Source of the DNA: Stegostoma tigrinum
Taxonomy: Eukaryota
Direction of reading: 5' to 3'
Assembly: GCF_030684315.1 (NCBI RefSeq)
Contig: NC_081395.1
Coordinates: 14,149,542 to 14,213,541 of the forward strand
DNA: 64,000 bases
Below, piece by piece: positions 4,112 through 63,470 of this stretch. The translations under genes and the position numbers were made by a program. The notes beneath the pieces are model-generated. The model had not been told where the DNA came from. It saw only the letters and a list, made by a program, of their open reading frames with translations, and did not search any database. Numbering within the stretch: the stretch's first letter is position 1; each line of letters opens with the position of its first letter.

Positions 4112-6527
4112 AGATAATGGAAACTGCAGATGCTGGAGAATCCGAGATAACAAAGTGTGGAGCTGGAAGAACACAGCAGGCCAAGCAGCATCTTAGGAGG
4201 ACAAAAGCTGACTTTCTGGGCCTAGACCCTTCATCAGAAAAGGGGTGTGGGGAGAGGATTCTGAAATAAATAGGGAGAGAGGGGGAGGTGGACTGAAGGT
4301 GGATGGAGGAGAAGATAGGTGGACATGAGAGTATAGGTGGGGAGATAGGGAGGGCATAGGTTAGTCCGGGGAGGACAGACAGGTCAAGGGGGCGGGGAGA
4401 GGTTAGTAGGTAGGAAATTGAGGTGCAGGTTGAGGTGGGAGGAGGGGATAGGTGTGAGGAAGAACAGGTTAGGGAGGTGGGGACGAGCTGGGCTGGTTTT
4501 CGGATGCAGTGGTGGTGGGGGGCGGATTTTGAAGCTAGTGAAGTCCACATTGATACCATTGGGCTGCAGGGTTCCCAAGCGGAATATGAGTTGCTTTTCC
4601 TGCAACCTACGGGTGTCATCATTATTGAACTGCAGGAGGCCCATGATGGACATGTCATCTAAGGAATGGAAGGGGGAGTTAAAATGGTTCGCAACTGGGA
4701 GGTGCAGTTGTTTATTGCAAACCAAGCGTAGGTGCATGGGCCCAAGCTATGCCTGCCTCTTTGTAGGTTACGTGGAACAGTCCTTCTTCCAGACCTACAC
4801 CGGCCCTAAGCCCCACTTCTTCCTCCATTACATTGATGACTGTATCGGCGCCACCTCGTGCTCCCAAAAGGAGCTCAAACAGTTCATCTATTTCACCAAC
4901 ACCTTCAATCCTAACCTTCAGTTCACCTGGACCATCTCCAACACATCCCTCACCTTCCTGGTCCTCTCTGTCTCCATCTCAGGCAACCACCTAGAAACCG
5001 ATGTCCATTTCAAGCCGACCGACTCCCACAACTACCTGGAATACACCTCCTCCCACCCACCTTCCTGCAAAAATTCCATCCACTATTCCCAATTCTTCGC
5101 CTCTGCCTCATCTGCTCCCATGATGAGGCATTCCGCTCCCATATATCCCAGATGTCCTTGTTCTTCAAGAACCGCAACTTCCGTGAATCCCCCCCCCCCG
5201 ACATACCCCCACAGTGGTTGAGAACGCCGTCGACCGTGTCTCCTACATTTCCTGCACCTCATCCCTCACACCCCGCCCCCGAAATAACCGCCAAAAGAGA
5301 ATCCCCCTAGTCCTCACATACCACCCCACCAATCTGCGGGTACAACGCATCATGCTCCAACACTTCCGCCATCTACAATCCGACCCCACCACTAAAGATA
5401 TTTTTCCATCCCCACCCTTGTCTGCCTTCTGGAGAGACCTCTCTCTCCGCGACTTCCCTGTCTGCTCCACACTCCCCTCCAACCCCACCACACCCGACAC
5501 TTTCTCCTGCAACCGGAGGAAGTGCTACACTTGTCCGCACACCTCCTCCCTCACCCCCATCCCAAGTTCCAAGATGACTTTCCACATCAAGCAGATGTTC
5601 ACCTGCACATTCGCCAATGTGGTATACTGCATCCGTTGTCACTTCCTCTACATTGGGGAAACCAAGCGGAGGCTTGAGGACCACTTTGCAGAACACCTCC
5701 GCTCGGTTCGCAATAAACAACTGCACCTCCCAGTCGCGAAACATTTCAACTCCCCCTCCCATTCCTCAGACAACATGTCCACCCTGGGCCTCCTGCAGCG
5801 CCATAATGATGCCACCCGTAGGTTGCAGGAACTCATATTCCGCTTGGGAACCCTGCAGCCCAATGGTATCAATGTGGATTTCACCAGCTTCAAAATCTCC
5901 CCTCCCCCCACTACATCTCAAAACCAGTCCAGCTCGTCCCGCCTCCCTAACCTGTTCTTTCTCGGGCGGCACAGTGGCTCAGTGGTTAGCACTGCAGCCT
6001 CACAGCGCCAGGGACCTGGGTTCAATTCCAGTCATTGGGCGACTGTCTGTGTGGACTTTGCACATTCTCCCCGTGTCTGCGTGGGTTTCCTCCCACAGTC
6101 CAAAGATGTGCGCGCTAGGTGGATCGGCCATGCTAAATTGCCCATAGTGTTCAGGGGTCTGGGTGGGATGCTTCAAGGGGCGGTGTGGACTTGTTGGGCA
6201 GAAGGGCCTGTTTCCACACTGTAGGAAATCTAATTTAATCTCTCACCTATCCCCTCCTCCCACCTCAAGCCGCACTTCCATTTCCTACCTACTAACCCCT
6301 GCCCGTCCTCCCCGGATTGACCTATCCCCTCCCTACCTCCCCACCTTTACTCTCCTCTCCACCTATCTTCTCCTCTATCCATCTTCAGTCCCTCTCTCCC
6401 TATTTACTTCAGAATCCTCTCCCATCCCCCTCTCTGATGAAGGATCTAGGCCCAAAACGTCAGCTTTTGTGCTCCTAAGATGCTGCTTGTCCTGCTGTGT
6501 TCATCCAGCTCCACACTTTTATATCTC
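4112..6527. mobile_element. Penelope-like element, inverted structure (minus arm to about 4733, plus arm from about 4734)
   Basis: RT fragment (MGPSYACLF, YIDD) and GIY-YIG endonuclease (YCI...YIGETKRRL...EH) on plus; inverted GIY-YIG end and terminus on minus. Confidence 0.9.
5963..6240 (+). mobile_element. tRNA-derived shark SINE (HE1-like) nested in the Penelope element
   Basis: A box TGGCTCAGTGG and B box GGTTCAATTCC; the Penelope sequence resumes after it. Confidence 0.85.
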
Positions 6528-11258: not shown

Positions 11259-11349
11259 GCGGAATGGTTCCGCTCCATGTTCACAATCAAGAGGAATTGT
11301 TCCGACACTGAGTCGCATTCTCTATCCAGTTGTGCCAAAAGACTAGACA

Positions 11350-11395
11350 ATGCAACTGATCCCGTTCCTCTGCTTTTTGCTGTCTTGTTTCACCT
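11350..11395 (+). CDS. IgH leader exon (MQLIPFLCFLLSCFT, phase 1)
   Basis: ATG at 11350, hydrophobic signal peptide, GT donor at 11396; a 105-nt intron to the ttcacAG acceptor at 11500 joins in frame to Y-I-R-S/NIALTQ. Confidence 0.9.
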
Positions 11396-11500
11396 GTGTG
11401 TTACTTACAGTATAATAAAAGTGTGCTTAAGATATTCTATTTTAGTTCTTTCTTTTTTTGCTTGATCTCTAATGTTATTGTATGTTTCATTTATTCACAG

Positions 11501-11803
11501 ATATCCGATCCAATATCGCGTTAACCCAGTTACCTCCTGTGTCAGTAAAGCGTGGACAATCTCATAAACTGTCCTGTTCAGTGTCGGGGTTCAGTCTTGA
11601 CAGCCACCATGTACATTGGTTTAAGCAAATTCCCGGGAAAAGGTTGGAGTGGCTCCTTGCTTATAGAAATCCTTCAGATACCAATTATTACGCGCCTGGA
11701 GTCGAAGGCCTAATCATTCCTTCAAGATCCTCCTCTACAGCCTACATTGAGATCAAAAGTTTCAGACTCGAAGACACCGCCATTTATTACTGTGCAAGAC
11801 ATG
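11501..11803 (+). CDS. IGHV: IgH variable segment, open frame, IgW-like / IgM1gj-like VH
   Basis: NIALTQ...HKLSCSVSGFSL...WFKQIPGKRLEWL...EDTAIYYCAR: both canonical Cys, the FR2 Trp and the YYC motif are present, followed directly by an RSS heptamer. Confidence 0.95.
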
Positions 11804-11843
11804 CACAGCAGCTCAATCAAGTCCAGGGTGCATAAAAAATACC
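11804..11843 (+). other. V 3' recombination signal sequence (about 23-nt spacer)
   Basis: Heptamer CACAGCA at 11804-11810; A-rich nonamer AAAAAATAC or AAAAATACC after a 23-24 nt spacer. Confidence 0.8.
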
Positions 11844-12158
11844 GAGGATGAGTAATTGCATTGAATCGTAGGTGAGTATTTATTACACGTATTTGCAATT
11901 AGATGGAAAGACGTTCGAATTAATGCAATACAGTGGCAAAGAACAATAAAGATGTTAATTAGGTTTGTGTGGAGAGAGAACATGATTCTGGTTATATTAT
12001 TCACTGCTGACGATTGGATGTCTACCAGAAAAGTTATTACATAGCTGGTCAAAAACTTCCGCCAAATAAATCTCACAGTTAGACTATGGTCAAAATATAT
12101 TGAGCTGCTGTAAATTATGTGATTATATTTCTAACATCAGCAATTAATCAGTCAGAAT

Positions 12159-12239
12159 AGTATTTATATAATGTCGTATTACTGTGCTACAGCTGGAGTC
12201 ACAGTGCTGTGTATCGCGATGTCCTCATATAAAAAAACC
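12159..12239 (+). other. IGHD: Single D segment CTACAGCTGGAGT (12187-12199) with 5' 12-RSS and 3' 23-type RSS
   Basis: AGTATTTAT-12-TACTGTG upstream; CACAGTG followed after 22-24 nt by an A7CC nonamer downstream; about 380 nt from V and 370 nt from J. Confidence 0.9.
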
Positions 12240-12567
12240 CTAGGAACTTTGTAAATTCTGCGATCAGTACCAGGCATGAAAGATCTATCTTAACGAAAAT
12301 TATCTATTTAAAAAAATAGCAATTCTATTGAATTGCAACAACAAGAAAATGTCATGATTTTTCACGTTGACAATCCCATTACAACTGCACTGGTGACTGA
12401 GAACTGTTTCGAACAATTTTCAGATTTAATCACCAAAATTATTTGAATATCCCAGTGAAGCCCTCTTGGAGAACTCGGAATCATGTATTTAAATGTGCCG
12501 AATGATTTAGTTTCTGTATTTTGCAAGGAACGACCGAATCCAATGTATGATGCGGTGTGACTCTGTG

Positions 12568-12614
12568 CTATTTTGACAACTGGGGACAAGGAACCATGGT
12601 GACGGTGACTACAG
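12568..12614 (+). CDS. IGHJ: IgH J segment (YFDNWGQGTMVTVTT)
   Basis: WGQG motif; phase-1 donor G|GTAAGA at 12615; the 5' boundary is uncertain because the RSS is degenerate. Confidence 0.92.
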
Positions 12615-13248
12615 GTAAGAAACATGTTTTATTCGTGTTATGCTTGATTTGTGACATTATTTCATTTTTCTGTTTTTTTTTGCACAATTACTGTGCGAAC
12701 TAAACAGTTCAGTTGGTTGATGCTATGCTTACAACATTGATTTTGCGGCGCTGCAAAGTGATACCACCATTTTACTGCATCTCTAAATTTGAAGAAAATA
12801 GTTATGGAGATATTGAGAGTCTGGCTGAGTGATTTGCCACTTATTTGCTGTTGAAACATTCTACCTGGCTTACTTCACACATTTGAATTTTGATAGCAGT
12901 TCGGCGTTTCTGACAAGTTTCTAAACTTGGAAACGTCTGATTGTTGCAAAGTCATAACATAAGTTTAACAACGTTGAAACTAAATTTTGGAATTATATCT
13001 AAATGCTTTCAAGGTCTAAAAATTAATACAGAGATGTTAAATTTTTTGCGAATTAAATTGCAAGATATTAATACGAGTTTGATGAGTATTGATTTTAATA
13101 AAGGAAACACTGCTCTAAATAAGCAAAACGTGTTTAACAAATTTCCTGCCATGGTCAGATTTAAATTATTGCAAATATTTCAATAGAATATCGTCTCCCA
13201 ACATTACTGAAATATGTTATTGATTAAGAATCAACATGTTATATATAA

Positions 13249-20699: not shown

Positions 20700-20999
20700 T
20701 GATACCATCAGTCCCCACACTGTATGGGTTGATCTCCTCCTGTGAACAATCAAACTCATCCAAGTCTGTGACTTATGGCTGTCTGGTGATGGACTACTCC
20801 CCCGAAATCACCAGCCTTACTTGGAAGAAGGAGCAAGATCAAATTGACAGTGGACTGAAGACTTACCCATCAGTGCTGAATAAGGAGGCAACGCATACCC
20901 TAAGTAGTCAGTTAACGATCTCTGAATCAGAAGAGGGAAGCAGCAGAATCTACTGTGAGATCCAACAAAGCGAGAAAGTCTGGCGAGAAGAAATGCCAG
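20700..20999 (+). CDS. IGHM: mu-type constant exon CH1 (intact)
   Basis: tatcAG acceptor; [15 protein letters not shown]...[16 protein letters not shown]...[10 protein letters not shown]...IYCE typical of shark Cmu1; G|GTTAGT donor. Confidence 0.92.
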
Positions 21000-22351: not shown

Positions 22352-22663
22352 ATCCCGTTATCCATCATCCAACTATTACTGTCACCGCGAGTCCTAGTCA
22401 GGAAGTCATGAGCAGCAGATTTGCAACTGTCGTCTATTCAATCGTTGATTTCCGTCCAACCTCAATCGCTGTAAATTGGCTGAAGAATGGACAAGTCATC
22501 CCTTCGGGATTTGTCACTTCCCCAACCTTTGAAGTGAACGGCAACTTTTCAGCCACCAGTCGTCTCACAATCACTGCCAGGGAGTGGTTCGACAATGCGG
22601 TCTTTTCCTGCCAGGTTACTCAACGACGGTTCACCCAAATTCAGAACATCACCAGATCTTCCG
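22352..22663 (+). CDS. IGHM: mu-type constant exon CH2 (open frame, first canonical Cys replaced by Tyr)
   Basis: gaAG acceptor; [12 protein letters not shown]...WLKNGQ...[21 protein letters not shown]...CQV; G|GTAAG donor. Confidence 0.9.
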
Positions 22664-24267: not shown

Positions 24268-24575
24268 AGGATTCCACGTGCAGCGATCCTAAAATCACTT
24301 TATTGCCACCGCCAATCGACCAAGTCTTACTGGACTACACGGTAACATTAACTTGCATCGTGTCTAACGTTGCTTACGAAGTTAACGTGTCTTGGACCCA
24401 AGGAACGAAGCCTTTGAAATCAGGATGTCTAATCAACAGGGAGAGGATCAACACAGTGTGATCAGCAAAATAGATATCCCTACACAAGCTTGGCAGAGTG
24501 GGGCTACATTCTTCTGCGTGGCAAGCGATCAGAATCTGCTGACCCCTGTAAGAGGTTCTATCAGCAAAATAAAAA
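24268..24575 (+). pseudogene. IGHM: mu-type constant exon CH3 with a -1 frameshift near 24423
   Basis: [15 protein letters not shown]...TLTCIVSN...[12 protein letters not shown], then the domain continues in another frame (MSNQQGED...[11 protein letters not shown]); the unshifted frame stops at TGA 24459-24461; exon is 308 nt. Confidence 0.88.
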
Positions 24576-25083: not shown

Positions 25084-25476
25084 ATAATCATCCCCGAGTG
25101 TCTTCCGTATCTGCCCTCTTGCCCTTGGCAGAAAAACCCTCTTCTCAGGAGTTCGTCTTGCTCACCTGCTTAGTGAGAGGTTTCTCCCCCCCGAGAGACC
25201 TTTGTTAAGTGGACCGTCAATGACAAACCGGTGAATCCTGGTAACTACAGGAACACCGAGGCGATAGCGGAGAGTGACAATACTTCCTACTTTATGTACA
25301 GCCTGTTATCCATCAGAGCGGTGGAATGGGCCAGCGGTACCTCTTACTCTTGTATGGTGGGACATGAGGCGATTCCCCTGAAATTCATCAACAGAACTGT
25401 CGATAAATCTAGTGGTAAACCGAGTTTTGTGAACGTTTCCCTGATACTGATGGACACTGTTAATTCGTGTCAATGA
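25084..25476 (+). pseudogene. IGHM: mu-type constant exon CH4 plus secretory tailpiece, with a +1 frameshift in a C7 run (25186-25192)
   Basis: [10 protein letters not shown], shift, then [16 protein letters not shown]...[11 protein letters not shown]...[24 protein letters not shown]; internal G|GTAAAC donor for the membrane form at 25415; penultimate Cys retained. Confidence 0.9.
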
Positions 25477-28298: not shown

Positions 28299-28426
28299 AT
28301 TCCACAGACCACGTCTGGATTGAAGATTACCAGGATATAAATAGCAACACCTGGACAACTGCATCCATGTTCATCACCCTGTTCCTCCTGAGTATTTTCT
28401 ACAGCGCTGCTGTCACTCTAGCGAAG
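28299..28426 (+). CDS. IGHM: IgM transmembrane exon TM1
   Basis: [43 protein letters not shown] with the conserved antigen-receptor TM residues; AG acceptor and GT donor. Confidence 0.92.
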
Positions 28427-42420: not shown

Positions 42421-45080
42421 AGGGGGATGGGGAGAGGGAACTGGAATAAATAGGGAGAGAGGGGGAGGCGGACTGAAGATGGAGAGAAAAGAAGATAGGT
42501 GGAGAGAGTATAGGTGGAGAGGTAGGGAGGGGATAGGTCAGTCCAGGGAAGACGGACAGGTCAAGGAGGTGGGATGAGGTTAGTAGGTAGATGGGGGTGT
42601 GGCTTGGGGTGGGAGGAAGGGATGGGTGAGAGGAAGAACCGGTTAGGGAGGCAGAGACAGGTTGGACTGGTTTTGGGATGCAATGGGTGGGGGGGAAGAG
42701 CTGGGCTGGTTGCGTGGTGCAGTGGGGGGAGGGGACGAACTGGGCTGGTTTAGGGTTGCAGTAGGGGAAGGGGAGATTTTGAAACTGGTGAAGTCCACAT
42801 TGATACCATATGGCTGCAGGGTTCCCAGGCGGAATATGAGTTGCTGTTCCTGCAACCTTCGGGTGGCATCGTTGTGGCAGTGCAGGAGGCCCATGATGGA
42901 CATGTCATCTAGAGAATGGGAGGGGGAGTGGAAATGGTTTGCGACTGGGAGGTTCAGTTGTTTGTTGTGAACTGAGGGGAGGTGTTCTGCAAAGCGGTCC
43001 CCAAGCCTCCGCTTGGTTTCCCCAATGTAGAGGAAGCCGCACCGGGTACAGTGGATGCAGTATACCACATTGGCAGATGTGCAGGTGAACCTCTGCTTAA
43101 TGTGGAATGTCATCTTGGGGCCTGGGATAGGGGTGAGGGAGGAGGTGTGGGGACAAGTGTAGCATTTCCTGCGCTTGCAGGGGAAGGTGCCGGGTGTGGT
43201 GGGGTTGGAGGGCAGTGTGGAGCGAACAAGGGAGTCACGGAGAGAGTGGTCTCTCCGGAAAGCAGACAGGGGTGGGCATGGAAAAATGTCTTGGGTGGTG
43301 GGGTCGGATTGTAAATGGCGGAAGTGTCGGAGGATGATGCGTTGTATCCGGAGGTTGGTAGGGTGGTGTGTGAGAACGAGGGGGATTCTCTTAGGGCGGT
43401 TGTGGCGGGGTGGGGTGTGAGGGATGTGTTGCGGGAAATACGGGAGACGCGGTCAAGGGCGTTCTCGATCACTGTGGGGGGAAAGTTGCGGTCCTTAAAG
43501 AACATGGACATCTGGGATGTACGGGAGTGGAATGTCTTATCGTGGGAGCAGATGCGGCGGAGGCGGAGGAATTGGGAATAGGGGATGGAATTTTTGCAGG
43601 AGGGTGGGTGGGAGGAGGTGTATTCTAGGTAGCTGTGGGAGTCGGTGGGCTTGAAATGGACATCAGTTACAAGCTGGTTGCCTGAGATGGAGACTGAGAG
43701 GTCCAAGAAGGTGAGGGATGTGCTGGAGATGGCGCAGGTGAACTGAAGGTTGGGGTGGAAGGTGTTGGTGAAGTGGATGAACTGTTCGAGCTCCTCTGGG
43801 GAGCCGGCGGCGCCGATACAGTCATCAATGTACCGGAGGAAGAGGTGGGGTTTGGGGCCTGTGTAGGTGCGGAAGAGGGACTGTTCCACGTAACCTACAA
43901 AGAGGCAGGCATAGCTGGGGCCCATGCGGGTGCCCATGGCCACCCCCTTAGTCTGTAGGAAGTGGGAGGAGTCAAAAGAGAAGTTGTTGAGTGTGAGGAC
44001 GAGTTCAGCTAGGCGGATGAGAGTGTCGGTGGAGGGGGACTGGTCGGGCCTCCGGGACAGGAAGAAGCGGAGTGCCTTGAGGCCATTTCCATGCGGAATG
44101 CAGGTGTACAGGGACTGGACGTCCATGGTGAATATGAGGTGTTGGGGGCCAGGGAATTGGAAGTCCTGGAGGAGGTGGAGGGCGTGGGTGGTGTCACGGA
44201 CGTAGGTGGGGACCCCTCACACCCCGCCCCCACAACCGCCCTAAGAGAATCCCCCTCGTTCTCACACACCACCCTACCAACCTCCGGATACAACGCATCA
44301 TCCTCCGACACTTCCGCCATTTACAATCCGACCCCACCACCCAAGACATTTTTCCATCCCCACCCCTGTCTGCTTTCCGGAGAAACCACTCTCTCCGTGA
44401 CTCCCTTGTTCGCTCCACACTGCCCTCCAACCCCACCACACCCGGCACCTTCCCCTGCAAGCGCAGGAAATGCTACACTTGTCCCCACACCTCCTCCCTC
44501 ACCCCTATCCCAGGCCCCAAGATGACATTCCACATTAAGCAGAGGTTCACCTGCACATCTGCCAATGTGGTATACTGCATCCACTGTACCCGGTGCGGCT
44601 TCCTCTACATTGGGGAAACCAAGCGGAGGCTTGGGGACTGCTTTGCAGAACACCTCCGCTCAGTTCGCAACAAACAACTGCACCTCCCAGTCGCAAACCA
44701 TTTCCACTCCCCCTCCCATTCTCTAGATGACATGTCCATCATGGGCCTCCTGCACTGCCACAATGATGCCACCCGAAGGTTGCAGGAACAGCAACTCATA
44801 TGCCGCCTGGGAACCCTGCAGCCTAATGGTATCAATGTGGACTTCACCAGTTTCAAAATCTCCCCTTCCCCTACTGCAACCCTAAACCAGCCCAGTTCGT
44901 CCCCTCCCCCCACTGCACCACGCAACCAGCCCAGCTCTTCCCCGCCCACCCACTGCATCCCAAAACCAGTCCAACCTGTCTCTGAGATAATGGGAACTGC
45001 AGATGCTGGAGATTCCAAGATAATAAAATGTGAGGCTGGATGAACACAGCAGGCCAAGCAGCATCTCAGGAGCACAAAAG

Positions 45081-55061: not shown

Positions 55062-55993
55062 CTAAATAACTGGAGGGCACTTTACTGCATTTTCCTGTTT
55101 AAAACAACGATGAAAATAGCAAAGAGGATAAATTACGATCTGCTTAAACTCCTCTCGAAATTTCTTCTGGGTCACCGCATAGATGAAAACGTTGTTACAG
55201 GAACTAAGTATTTGTAGCATATTGGTCGTCTCTTGAAGGATATACTGTGGATTATTGAAATCCAGGCTGTTAAAATAACCCACACCAGTAATTCGCACAT
55301 AAAGAAACTGTATGATGTGAGTGACCCACAGTAGGAGGAAGCTGAGTGAGACAGTGAACAGCAGGACAATGGATCTCCTGCGGTTGGCCATCTCTGCATC
55401 TCCTCGATCCTTTGTGCTCCGGAGTCTCCTACGGGCCCTGCTAGCAACTAAGATATTTCTTACTGTCAAGGTATTGAGCAGCAGAATGAGGAGGAATGGG
55501 AGAAAAGGAGTTAATATGTGGTCCAGTGAATCGAAGGCCTGCCAAGCAGACACTGTGTAATAGAAGGACTTGATAATGCAGAACCAGGGCAATCCACCCA
55601 CAAAGTACAAGGGCTCAAAGATGAAGTAAAAAGGAGCATTTTTTGCAAAACTCAGGAAACAGACAATTCCTATGACCAGAGATGCAGATTTCTCCGTGCA
55701 ATATCTGGTTTTCAGGCTCTGGCAGGAGATAGCAACAAATCGGTCAAAGGTGAAAGCTACTGTCAGCCAGACTGAACAGTCTCGAGTGGCAAAGATCAGC
55801 ATAGTCGTGAGCTTGCACCCTGTGGTGATGGACAAGACACTGTCAGGAAAGTAGATTCGGCCAATCCGATTGAGGATGCACCCATTGATGATGACAAGGA
55901 AATCGGTCACTGCTATCGCCACCAGGTAGAAGGAGATGCACCGAGAAAGACCGCATCGTCGCCGGCAGAGGATTAAGATTGCCACCAAGTTTG
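55062..55993 (-). CDS. GPR139/GPR142-like class A GPCR, exon 2
   Basis: Open multi-TM frame with ANLVAILIL...CGLSRCI, DCSVWLTVAFTFDRFVAI and NVFIYAVTQKKFREE; tctcacAG acceptor. Confidence 0.88.
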
Positions 55994-57052
55994 CTGTGAG
56001 AAATGAAAACAGAAATACTATGGGAACATAGGAAAGAGCTTGAGTATGCTCCTTGGCCATCAAGGCTGATCTAGAGCATAGTTTTTCTACCTGAAAAAAA
56101 TTTCTGCACTATCTACCTATCACTAGACATTTTTTACATCTCAATCTTTCAAGCTTGCCTTGGATATACTGTAGAGTGCTTCAGACTCCATAACCAAGGT
56201 TGAATTTTTTTGCTGTGCTCTCATTGAGGGAAGACTGAAATAATATTCTCAAAGTCAACGTTGCTTGCCATGGACAGCAAGGCAGAAAGTGGAGGCTGTG
56301 ACTAATCAGATGGTTCTCTCAAAAAGACATTGTCATCAGAGTGGAAGAAATGTGCTGTGACACTATTATTTGAGCCCAAATGCAAGACACATCCATCCTG
56401 AAAGGAAGCACAATCAGATTGGTGGGGCATGTAAGTTTAAGAAGAAGGAAAGAAGGCTAATTAACAGTTAGTGTGGGGGCACAGACTCCGAAGCTCTGGG
56501 CCATTAACCCTTGCTATGTTTACTGAATACAGCGAATGCAGACAGAAAGATTGGCCTTGATTCTCCCTGAGCAGCTGCACAGGCAGTGTACCGGTTGTTC
56601 AGGGATGGCGATGGTAGTTGGGGAAGGGGTGCGGGCAGGATCTGTAGGAGTGAGATGGTAGCGGGAGAAGGGGGGAGTGACATCCCAATGTGGTCCCTTC
56701 CCTTCTTCCTCAGGAATTCCATTAGCCCGCCAACTTCCCATAATCTGTGTTTACCACCACTCAAATCAGAACTCACCTTGATCTAAACCAACCAAAAACC
56801 ACCAGCACCAAACACTCACCCACATCAATGACACTCCCACAATTCCACCTGATCACATGAAAAATAGAGATGAACAAATCATGCTGACTTTGCAAGAGAT
56901 AGTCACTTCCAGAAATGGTTAGAAAACATAACATTGCCTGAAGAATGTTCAAAACATATCAGCCCAAGCAAAATAACGGATTAACAATTATTGATTTGAA
57001 ATCTCTCATTTAAATATTTCTATAAGTGAACACAAATCCATATTAATAATCA

Positions 57053-58423
57053 GAGATGGAATTTTTGCAGGAGGGTGGGTGGGAGGAGGTGTATTCTAGG
57101 TAGCTGTGGGAGTCGGTGGGCTTGAAATGGACATCAGTTACAAGCTGGTTGCCTGAGATGGAGACTTATTCCATCCCCTATTCCCAATTCCTCCGCCGCA
57201 TCTGCTCCCACGATAAGACATTCCACTCCCGCACATCCCAGATGTCCAAGTTCTTTAAGGACCGCAACTTTCCCCCCACAGTGATCGAGAACGCCCTTGA
57301 CCGCATCTCCCGTATTTCCCGCAACACATCCCTCACACCCCGCCCCCGCCACAACTGCCCTAAGAGGATCCCCTCGTTCTCACACACCACCCTACCAACC
57401 TCCGGATACAACGCATCATCCTCCGACACTTTCGCCATTTACAATCCGACCCCACCACCCAAGACATTTTTCCATCCCCACACCTGTCTGCTTTCCGGAG
57501 AGACCACTCTCTCCATGACTCCCTTGTTCGCTCCACACTACCCTCCAACCCCACCACACCCGGCACCTTCCCCTGCAACCGCAGGAAATGCCACACTTGC
57601 CCCCACACCTCCTCCCTCACCCCTATCCCAGGCCCCAAGATGACATTCCACATTAAGCAGAGGTTCACCTGCACATCTGCCAATGTGGTATACTGCATCC
57701 ATTGTACCCGGTGCGGCTACCTCTACATTGGGGAAACCAAGCGGAGGCTTGGAGACCGCTTTGCAGAACACCTCCGCTCAGTTCGCAACAAACAACTGCA
57801 CCTCCCAGTCGCAAACCATTTCCACTCCCCCTCCCATTCTCTAGATGACATGTCCATCATGGGCCTCCTGCACTGCCACAATGATGCCACCCGAAGGTTG
57901 CAGGAACAGCAACTCATATTCCGCCTGGGAACCCTGCAGCCTAATGGTATCAATGTGGACTTCACCAGTTTCAAAATCTCCCCTTCCCCTACTGCATCCC
58001 TAAACCAGCCCAGTTTGTCCCCTCCCCCCACTGCACCACACAACCAGCCCAGCTCTTCCCCCCCACCCACTGCATCCCAAAACCAGTCCAACCTGTCTCT
58101 GCCTCCCTAACCGGTTCTTCCTCTCACCCATCCCTTCCTCCCACCCCAAGCCGCACCCCCATCTACCTACTAACCTCATCCCACCTCCTTGACCTGTCCG
58201 TCTTCCCTGGACTGACCTATCCCCTCCTTACCTCCCCACCTATACTCTCTCCACCTATCTTCTTTACTCTCCATCTTCGGTCCGCCTCCCCCTCTCTCCC
58301 TATTTATTCCAGTTCCCTCACCCCATCCCCCTCTCTGATGAAGGGTCTCGGCCCGAAACGTCAGCTTTTGTGCTCCTGAGATGCTGCTTGGCCTGCTGTG
58401 TTCATCCAGCCTCACATTTTATT
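57053..58423 (+). mobile_element. 5'-truncated Penelope-like element with a short inverted 5' piece, inside the GPCR intron
   Basis: GIY-YIG ORF 57640-58110; 17-bp duplication ATCCATATTAATAATCA at 57036-57052 and 58424-58440. Confidence 0.92.
58333..58364 (+). ncRNA. Minimal hammerhead ribozyme motif
   Basis: CTCTGATGAAGGGTCTCGGCCCGAAACGTCAG. Confidence 0.75.
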
Positions 58424-60554: not shown

Positions 60555-63470
60555 AGGAATGAGTGCCAGGGCAGTTGCATGCACCTTCTGCAGAGTTTGG
60601 GAGGTAAGGGTCACTACTAGTGACCCCACTGACTTCATCTGAGGGAAATGCACTGAACTCCAGCTCCTCGGAAACCACGTTAGGGAACTGAAGCTGGAGC
60701 TGGATGAACTTCAGAGCATTTCAGAGGCTGAGGGGGTAATTGAGAGGAGTTACAGGGAGGAAGTCACACCTCAGGTACAGAAAAAGGTAGATGAGTTCCA
60801 GTCAGGGGATGGAAAGGGAACAGGCAGACAGTGAAGGGATCCCCTGTGGCCATTCCCCTCAATAACAAGTATGCCATTTTGGATACTGTTGGGGGGGATG
60901 ACTTGCCAGGGGTAAACCATGGGGTACAGGTCTCTGGCACAGAGTCTGTCCCTGTTGCTCAGAAGGAAAGGGGGGAGAGGAGGAGAGCATTAGTCATTAG
61001 GGACTTGAAAGTTAGGCAGACATATAGAGATTCTGTGGGATGAGACAGACTCGTGGTTGGTGTGTTGCCTCCCAGATGCCAGGGCTCATGATGTCTCGGA
61101 TCATGTTTTCAGCATCCGTAAGGGGGAGGGGGAGCAGCCCTAAGTCGTATTCCACATAGGCACCAACGACATAGGTAGGAAAAGGGATGGGGATGTGAGG
61201 CAGAAATTCAGGGAGCAAAGGTGTAAGCTTCAAGATAGAACAGACGATATCTCTGGTTTGTTACCCGTGCCACGTGCTCGCAAGGTGATAAATAGGGAGC
61301 GAGAGCAGTTGAACACGTGGCTGCAGAGATGGTGCAGCAGGGAGGGATTCAGATACCTGGATAATTGGGGGTCATTCTGGGGTAGGTGGGTCCTCTACAA
61401 AAGGGATGGTCTACACCTGAACCAGAGAGGTACCAATATGCTGGGTTGGGTGGGCCAGAATTTGCTATTGCTCTTCGGGTGAGTTTAAACTTATTTAGCG
61501 GGGGTATTGGAACCTGAATTGTAGCTCCAGTGTCCAGTCATGTTGAGAGTAGTGAAGTCATAAATAAGGTTTCAAGGTCACTGGAGTGTACCGGCAGGCA
61601 GGAAGGTGGTTTGAAGTGTGTCTACTTCAACACCAGGTGCATCCAGAATAAGGTGGGTGAACTTGCAGAATGTATCAGTACCTGTGACTTTAACGTTGTG
61701 GCCATCTCGGAGACATGGATAGAGCAGGGACAGGAATGGTTGTTGCAGGTTCCAGGGTTTAGATGTTTCAGTAAGATCAGGGAAGATGGTGAAAGAGGGG
61801 GAGGTGTGGCATTATTAGTCAAGGACAGTGTTACGGTGGCAGAAAGGATGTTTGATGAGGACTCGTCTACTGAGGTTGAAGGAACTGAGGCTAGAAATAG
61901 TAAAGGTGATGTCACCCTGTTGGAAGTTTTCTATAGGCCTCCGTGAAGTTCCAGAGATGCAGAGGAAAAGATCATCAGGATGATTCTGGATCGGACGGCG
62001 AAGTTAACAGGGTCGTTGTGATGGGGGCTTTAACTTTCCAAATATTGACTGGAAACGCCATAGGCTGATGATGCTAGATGGGTCAGTTTTTGTCCAATGT
62101 GTGCAGGAGGGTTTCCTGACACAGTATGTAGACAGGCCAACAAGAGGCGAGGCCACATTGGATTTGGTACTGGGTAATGAACCAGGCCAGGTGTTAGATT
62201 TGGAGGTAGGTGTGCACTTTGGTGATAGTGACCATAGTTAGGTTACGTTTTTTTGAGCGATGGAAAGGGATGGGTTTATATTGCACGGCAAGAGCGAGAG
62301 CTGGGAGAAAAGGCAATTATGAGGCAATTAGGCAAGATTTAGGATGCATAGGATGGAGAAGGAAACTGCAGGGGTTGGGCACAATTAAAATATGGAGCTT
62401 GTTCAAGGAATACCTCATGTGTGTCCTTGATAAAGAATATATCTGTTGTTCAGGGTGGAAGTGGTCAAGCAGGGGAACCATGGTTTATGAAAGAATTTGA
62501 AACTCTTGTCAACAGGAAGAGGGAGGCTTATGTAAAGATGAGGCATGAAGGCTCAGTTAGAGCGCTTGAGAGTTACAAGTTAGCCAGGAAGGACCAAATG
62601 AGAGAACTAAGAAGAGCCAGGAGGGGACATGAGAAGTCTTTGGCAGGTTGGATAAAGTAAAGCCCAAAAGTTTTCTATCGGTGTGTCAGGAACAAAACAA
62701 TGACTAGAGTGAGATTAGGGCCAGTCACGGACAGGAGTGGGAAGTTGTGCATGGAGTCCGAAGAGATAGGAAAGGCGCTAAGTGAATATTTTTCGTCAGT
62801 ATTCACACAGGAAAGAGACAATGTTATCAAGGAGAATACTGAGACACAGGCTATTAGACTAGATGGGATTGGGGTTCACAAGGGGAGGTGTTAGCAATTC
62901 TGGATGGTGTGAAAATAGATAAGTCCTCTGGGCCAGATGGGATGTAACCTAAGATTGTCTGGGAAGCTAGGGAGGAGATTACAGAACCTTTGGGTTTGAC
63001 GTTTATGTTGTCATTATCTTCAGGAATAGTGCCAGAAGACTAGAGGAGAGCAAATGTTGACCCCTTGTTCAAGAAGGAGAGGAGGGACAATCCTGGTAAT
63101 TACAGACGAGTGAGCCTTATTTCAGTTGTGGATAAAGTGTTGGAAAGGATTATAAGAGATAGGATTTATAATCATCTAGAAAGGAATAATTTGATTAGGG
63201 ATAGTCAACACGGTTTTGTGAAGGGTAGGTCGTGCCTCACAAACCTTATTGAGTTCTTTGAGAAGGTGACTAAACAGGTGTACGAGGGTAAAGAGATTGA
63301 TGTGGTGTTTATGGATTTTAGTAAAGCATTTGATAAGGTTCCCCATGGTAGGTTATTGCAGATAATACAGAGGCATGGGATTGAGGGTGATTTAGCGGTT
63401 TGAATCAAAAATTGGCTAGTTGGAAGAAGACAGAGGGTGGTGGTTGATGGGAAATGTTCATCCTGGTGTA
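60555..63470 (+). mobile_element. CR1 LINE, 5' two-thirds (ORF1 with SGNH esterase; ORF2 APE endonuclease and start of RT), disrupted
   Basis: HIGTND and RDGLHLNQRG (ORF1); VVAISETW and GGGVALLVK (APE); PGNYRRVSL, SQHGFVKGRSCLTNL and MDFSKAFDKVPH (RT). Confidence 0.92.

Follow-up and report, generated by a model that had tools for sequence, protein, structure and literature searches.

How an IgH cluster can assemble its segments when it carries a single D, and a J on a 12-type flank, is the question raised by a locus of Stegostoma tigrinum, since the usual layout of shark IgM clusters is V23-12D22/23-12D12-23J. The locus lies in a 64,000-nt stretch of DNA, hereafter the window (G000:C54:14149542-14213541; G000 is the genome and C54 the contig), and its segments are listed below, together with the spacers of the same signals in X12, a sequencing run of another organism (organism B) that is presumably of DNA.

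11350 to 11395, plus strand: leader exon; its donor keeps GT and is 2 nt shorter than the canonical donor of X12
11501 to 11803, plus strand: VH exon, open frame, of VHII/lambda1113 type (an IgW-like V), single copy in G000
11804 to 11843, plus strand: V signal, spacer 24 in the window and 23 in X12, heptamer at 11804-11810
12159 to 12186, minus strand: D 5′ signal, spacer 12
12187 to 12199, plus strand: the single D, 13 nt, D1-like
12200 to 12239, plus strand: D 3′ signal, spacer 24 in the window and 22 in X12
12200 to 12567, plus strand: D-J interval, 368 nt, forward, homologous over its whole length to the interval between D1 and D2 in IgM paralogues
12509 to 12547, minus strand: the 23-spacer candidate of the original prediction, which lines up with paralogue sequence that is not a signal, about 45 nt 5′ of D2
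12542 to 12567, minus strand: putative J signal, with a D2-type nonamer-like element at 12542-12550, spacer 10 (12 in X12) and heptamer at 12561-12567
12568 to 12614, plus strand: JH of IgM type, YFDNWGQGTMVTVT, open frame, intact donor at 12615

The layout given in the original prediction, a V (ending at 11803), one D and a J 368 nt further on with no second D, was confirmed in the sequence, and the two elements that it named, a nonamer-23-heptamer (12509-12547) and a heptamer adjoining the J (12561-12567), were present at the stated positions. Beyond the exons of the cluster itself, none of Ig type was found in the window or in the 30 kb to each side of it. A contig of run X4, which bears the same species label, matched 11330-12625 at 1295 of 1296 letters and with no gap, which argues that the layout is not an assembly error; X4 may be the assembled sample itself, in which case it shows accuracy rather than independent occurrence.

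To score the recombination signals, as the original prediction had proposed, we used a weight matrix trained on 134 signals of G000, which is rough and not a RIC model, the D2 3′ signal having been mis-called in 7 of the 16 IgH training clusters. Both strands of 11795-12640 were scanned at nine spacer lengths and compared with 100 shuffles, of which the best scores had a mean of 7.2 and a 95th percentile of 14.4. Only the D 3′ signal (18.1) scored above this percentile; the V signal (10.9) and the D 5′ signal (10.2) lay below it and were identified by their position beside the coding segments. The predicted 12-nt spacer on the 5′ side of the D was borne out, whereas the V and D 3′ signals, both described as 23-spacer signals, scored best at 24. 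As predicted, the J-adjacent heptamer had no nonamer at 12 or 23 nt (matrix totals −5.5 and −2.3, respectively); the best J-adjacent nonamer was found at a spacer of 10, with a total score of 4.8, and is itself weak (−5.4). Within 12240-12540, where an overlooked 12/12 D had been envisaged, the scan found no paired flanks, and the best single site scored 3.6 against the shuffle mean of 7.2. Searching the exact 12-signal pattern throughout G000 gave 25 matches compared with 12 in the control, mostly chance, one of which led to a TCR J array.

In order to find on which signal the J stands, 12 two-D clusters on contig C55 were each cut into three intervals for comparison with the window. Aligned end to end, the D-J interval of the window (368 nt) matched the IgM D1-D2 interval (376-399 nt) with a z of 9.0, the top of 48 comparisons, compared with a z of 2.0 for the D2-J interval and only 0.7 for the D1-D2 interval on the reverse strand, by which an inversion of the kind found in the horn shark IgM gene lambda1113 was ruled out. 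The similarity resides mostly at the ends: with the signals stripped, the interior gave a z of 2.9 against the IgM D1-D2 interval and of 3.0 against two IgW intervals and thus does not discriminate between them, while local alignments of the intervals reached a z of 2.9 at most. A profile search returned one match with an E of 0.023 (the D1 3′ signal) and two weaker ones. On its 3′ side, the D has a flank like that of D1 in IgM paralogues (z 5.6), and its 5′ flank (12135-12179) resembles their D2 5′ flank more than that of D1 (z 4.0 versus 1.3); the hybrid-joint account set out below leaves this D2-like 5′ flank unexplained. It is scarcely credible that the one D arose by joining D1 to D2 in the germline (V-DD-J), a pattern known in sharks. 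In an IgM cluster of G000 at about 3.276 Mb on C55 (L039 / L014), a single 30-nt D with 12-spacer signals on both sides does precede a 23-spacer J, as expected of such a join, and the accessible part of PMC4622739 gives the pattern for nurse shark IgNAR type III; however, the D of the window measures 13 nt, its 3′ signal has a spacer of 22-24, and an intact D1-D2 interval comes after it.

The register of the interval at the J was found to matter. In alignment to the paralogue L016, a 2-nt gap opens at the J heptamer, which is where X12 has 2 extra bases that produce a canonical heptamer with a 12-nt spacer to the nonamer-like 12542-12550. In the X12 register, the 45 nt upstream of the J matched the D2 5′ flank at 22/45 ungapped positions (0/2000 control windows) and the J flank at 14/45 (p 0.16); with the register as it stands in the window, the D2 5′ flank no longer matched (16/45, p 0.07). 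Besides, the J starts 1 base short of paralogue J starts and carries no D2 bases. Judged by the interval homology to the paralogues, the X12 register and the absent D2 bases, the J most likely stands in D2's usual place, on D2's 5′ 12-spacer signal.

The original prediction had instead looked to 12509-12547 for a broken 23-spacer signal of the J. Were this decayed signal still the J's, D2 would have gone by a plain deletion and the cluster would have been a dead orphan since, with no means of joining D to J. The nonamer of the site scores 11.4, and in the register ending at 12540 the 45 nt match an IgW J flank at 20/45 positions (p 0.0025; 1 of 72 comparisons and in effect one IgW sequence). 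Nevertheless, the first C is missing from its heptamer, which is 20 nt away from where J coding begins, its total of 9.2 is inside the chance range (95th percentile 14.4), and in the alignment to L016 its nonamer falls about 45 nt before D2, on sequence that is not a signal; moreover, X12 has its canonical heptamer directly on the J, and an orthologous V is spliced to its leader in a third organism (organism C, below). This reading is quite unlikely, and the site is most likely ordinary intervening sequence, a decoy.

Compared with X12, the window has 1 base more in the V signal and 2 more in the D 3′ spacer, and 2 fewer at both the J heptamer and the leader donor. The organism B cluster is therefore, as far as its sequence tells, likely a V23-12D22-12J cluster, which would be legal under the 12/23 rule. 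X12 cover leaves out about 12270-12417, and at 12269 its contig runs on with 136 unlike letters; inside the stretch matching about 12270-12417, organism B may hold a D2 or an insertion.

The explanation that we consider probable is that the window holds a VHII-type single-D IgM cluster with frameshifted C exons, the J of which likely sits on the 12-spacer signal of a deleted D2. In this explanation, an ancestor of the layout V23-12D1(22)-12D2(12)-23J would have lost D2, the D2-J interval and the J's 23-spacer signal in the germline, by a cut at the heptamer border that cost about one J base and left no D2 bases. The 12-signal 5′ of D2 and the 23-signal of the J point in the same direction, and a hybrid joint between such a pair deletes D2, the D2-J interval and the J signal and fuses the 12-signal to the J. 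A RAG hybrid joint between the D2 5′ signal and the J coding end is the best fit, to which we give about an even chance; a microhomology deletion between the two heptamers is a lesser possibility, and a D2-J coding joint with D2 trimmed away is rather unlikely, either of which would produce an identical scar. The resulting V23-12D22-12J layout would comply with the 12/23 rule, joining V to D and then D to J, or V to J directly, with two junctions rather than three and in a TCR delta-like order. In the window species, short indels would later have moved three spacers to 24, 24 and 10, and the C exons would have broken. Thus, the original prediction that D2 was lost or the J signal decayed, with D-J joining now unlikely in the window species, stands, while its identification of the J signal with 12509-12547 does not, in view of the paralogue homology and X12; the cluster was most likely legal earlier as V23-12D22-12J, its D2-type 12-spacer J signal having lost 2 nt.

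Constant exons were found on the plus strand downstream of the V-D-J, giving the four-domain C mu, secretory tail and transmembrane exon of a shark IgM cluster:

20700 to 20999, plus strand: C mu 1, intact, 300 nt
22352 to 22663, plus strand: C mu 2, open, with the first canonical Cys changed to Tyr
24268 to 24575, plus strand: C mu 3, 308 nt, with a frameshift near 24423 and a stop at 24459-24461
25084 to 25476, plus strand: C mu 4 and secretory tail, 331 nt to the membrane donor, with a frameshift in the C run 25186-25192
28299 to 28426, plus strand: transmembrane exon 1, intact

Among the 40 matches listed, the identity of CH1 was 49-58% with 19 exons of IgM type and 30-32% with 4 of IgW type, and the J motif is WGQGTMV, compared with WGSGTFL in IgW; IgW class was ruled out by these two features. 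The V is different. It is single copy and linked to C mu in G000, in searches that scored the best candidates; the best other V segments in G000 are four IgW V (49-57% identity, 65 matches), and IgM or VHI-type V on C55 reach 36-44%. In a V tree of 14 rows, the window V falls in a 7-row IgW V clade (support 100/99). The support for its branch with the catshark scyTo_0014239 (89/89) does not reach the starred level, and the CH1 tree does not resolve the branching, with scyTo_0014239 (V) and scyTo_0014240 (C) being the nearest rows in the two trees. The former is 67% identical in V and the latter 70% in CH1; the two have adjacent gene numbers and an equally long longest contig, and scyTo_0014240 shares a Phe in CH2 with the window C. 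No longer protein with the window V was found among 88 candidates, and nothing among the best 150 representatives exceeded 58% identity to it. Against horn shark lambda1113, read by eye from Fig. 5 of PMC2191167 with one codon unreadable, the V matched at 73/96 residues, ungapped. This match and the catshark V/C pair suggest that the window cluster is likely a single-copy IgM and an orthologue of VHII (lambda1113).

The J spacer of 10, the frameshifts in CH3 and CH4 and the loss of the first Cys in CH2 together indicate that the window copy is best read as a decaying pseudogene, which would give no heavy chain; the catshark C (scyTo_0014240) has an open model over 464 residues. Both frameshifts are read from the assembly, and the CH4 one sits inside a 7-C homopolymer. 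It is most improbable that the window copy still functions, with its C frameshifts being assembly errors and a spacer of 10 or some other site allowing D-J joining at a low rate. V, J, CH1 and the transmembrane exon are open with splice sites, the J heptamer is identical to that on paralogue V signals, and the CH4 shift could be laid to its run of 7 C; however, assembly and run contig agree at 1295/1296 letters over V-D-J, the CH3 shift lies outside any long run, the CH2 Cys loss is a substitution, and the J spacer is 2 nt short. Spacers 2 nt short are poor RAG substrates.

Among the 16 runs with small shares of the locus, the comparison covered X12, X15 and X18. Of the runs listed as containing the sequence, none was RNA of the window species; evidence for expression came from organism C, where two runs from two studies (X15 and X18, presumably RNA) contain a leader spliced to the orthologous V, with 12 other letters and no gap. 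This splice indicates that the VHII orthologue is transcribed in organism C. On the V-D and D-J intervals, X15 and X18 gave no cover, and in them no transcript joining V, D and J was found. The V contigs of both runs stop at 11797, where the DNA run X12 continues past; this is a weak hint of rearranged transcripts and would equally be expected if the end of FR3 has words in common with other V genes. Two further candidates were set aside: V-to-J joints starting at 11793-11801, with sides of 22-32 letters common to paralogues, cannot be assigned to the VHII gene, and a loose end behind the J in X18 that is like the start of the window CH1 was left unused, as a two-contig consensus with an agreement of 0.83. 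A second IgH cluster lies 1 Mb off (L024, G000:C54:15194000-15203999), with a germline-joined VDJ that is out of frame as assembled (31 nt from CAR to W); an L024-like joined form occurs in the DNA run X12 and, at high depth, in X15, where it is in frame at 39 nt (joint 11801-12581).

The spacer-type order inferred for the intact window cluster is that of TCR delta (V23, 12D23, 12J), and the original prediction had assigned the V(D) half to TCR delta or to another cluster. TCR alpha/delta genes were located on C55 and not on the window's C54: a TCR alpha J array at C55:880-961 kb and a 12/23 D at C55:961056, on the contig that also carries the main IgM and IgW arrays of G000. This D (L046, minus strand) is TCR delta-like, and its core resembles IgW D1. 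Upstream of the TCR D and J array, at C55:1.05-1.10 Mb, lie VH-like segments (L025-L027) that have strong 23-spacer signals and for which no D-J of their own was found; we take them to be candidate TCR delta-associated VH. These orphan segments are thus on C55 together with the J array and the 12/23 D, and the window V does not have the location of a TCR delta-associated VH or TAILV.

Retention of the V, or of V and D, to supply TCR delta or another IgH cluster in trans would be consistent with the open V frame beside a broken C; the 23-type ends formally fit the 12/23 D and the J array of C55, which has 12-nt spacers, and VH to TCR delta rearrangement is described as common in sharks in the accessible part of PMC12227049. 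Nevertheless, the same text presents a linked Ig/TCR complex, to which the arrangement on C55 corresponds, and attributes VH to TCR delta joining to close proximity, while the window and the TCR genes are on different contigs. Shark IgH joins almost wholly within the cluster, as far as the accessible parts of PMC2435157 and PMC2191167 go, the former giving one possible exception in 97 partial rearrangements. Both the V signal and the D 3′ signal have drifted to a 24-nt spacer, with 2 nt missing from the leader donor, which suggests no selection on the V side. A donor role is accordingly highly unlikely, and the claim is unsupported: the TCR genes are on another contig, no further Ig exon is nearby, and damage to the C exons explains the pseudogene. 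The window cluster differs from TCR delta in its IgH V, WGxG J, C mu and contig, and its likeness to TCR delta is better described as convergence than as membership.

Other altered IgH clusters were seen on C55. In L023, L034 and L038, the V lies about 430-450 nt from the J and no V signal was found, and these are probably germline V-D-D joins; in the IgM cluster L061 (C55:3.056-3.066 Mb), CH3 is split over two frames. The remainder of the window includes an open 348-residue frame on the minus strand (55062-56108) that looks by eye like a class A GPCR and to which a 246-residue frame in L073 is similar, and stretches with reverse-transcriptase-like and endonuclease-like frames that we take to be retroelement fragments (4349-6224, 42643-45043, 57104-58110 and 61144-63403).

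The closest known gene is lambda1113 (Hinds-Frey et al. 1993), described in the accessible part of PMC2191167 as an IgM gene in which the D1-D2 interval is inverted (V23-12D12-23D12-23J), with three cDNAs and use within the cluster. Like the window cluster, it is a single-copy divergent V on C mu with germline-rearranged signals, and the two V share a CDR2 insertion and an FR3 deletion and are far from VHI. In contrast, lambda1113 has two Ds, the inverted interval and cDNAs, whereas the window cluster has a forward interval, no D2, a 12-type J signal and broken C exons. An interval that is forward in the window and inverted in the horn shark indicates two separate germline events. The accessible text of PMC2193153 calls the lambda1113 inversion a germline hybrid joint, the documented case of signal swapping in the germline. 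In both that joint and the window cluster, a coding end has exchanged its signal for one of the other type and lost few bases, although the former is an inversion between two Ds and the latter would be a deletion that puts a D signal on the J. In partly joined shark clusters (VDD-J, V-DD-J and D2J; PMC2193153 and PMC4622739, as far as accessible), germline loss likewise cuts the number of somatic joints; the window cluster differs from them in having no D2 bases at the joint and a changed J signal type.

A single-D shark IgM with a 12-signal J was not found in the literature searched, a set that excludes the main nurse shark papers. In 2004, Rumfelt et al. reportedly described a divergent VH family of the nurse shark, of which the horn shark monotypic gene is an orthologue. 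We presume that this family may be nurse shark Group 6 and that Group 6 may be the window gene. In its accessible part, PMC2435157 names IgM Group 6 of the nurse shark a pseudogene. The gene family has been known since lambda1113, while the layout of a single D with a 12-signal J may be new.

How the differing 12/23 layouts of Ig and TCR originated is an old question, and signal swapping by a germline hybrid joint rests, as far as the accessible text of PMC2193153 goes, on the single documented case of lambda1113. The swap in the window differs from it in leading from an IgH layout to a TCR delta-like layout in a single step. As a pseudogene, the window copy is itself of little functional interest; paired with the seemingly intact X12 copy, from which it is a few bases apart per signal, it offers a ready pair for recombination assays. 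Tentatively, and at somewhat less than an even chance, we propose that VHII in relatives of the window species is a working IgM with the TCR delta grammar (V23-12D22-12J) that arose from a germline RAG hybrid joint. If true, this would be a second natural swap of 12/23 signals, arising independently in the single-copy gene that underwent the first, and would mark the VHII gene as a recurrent target of germline RAG.
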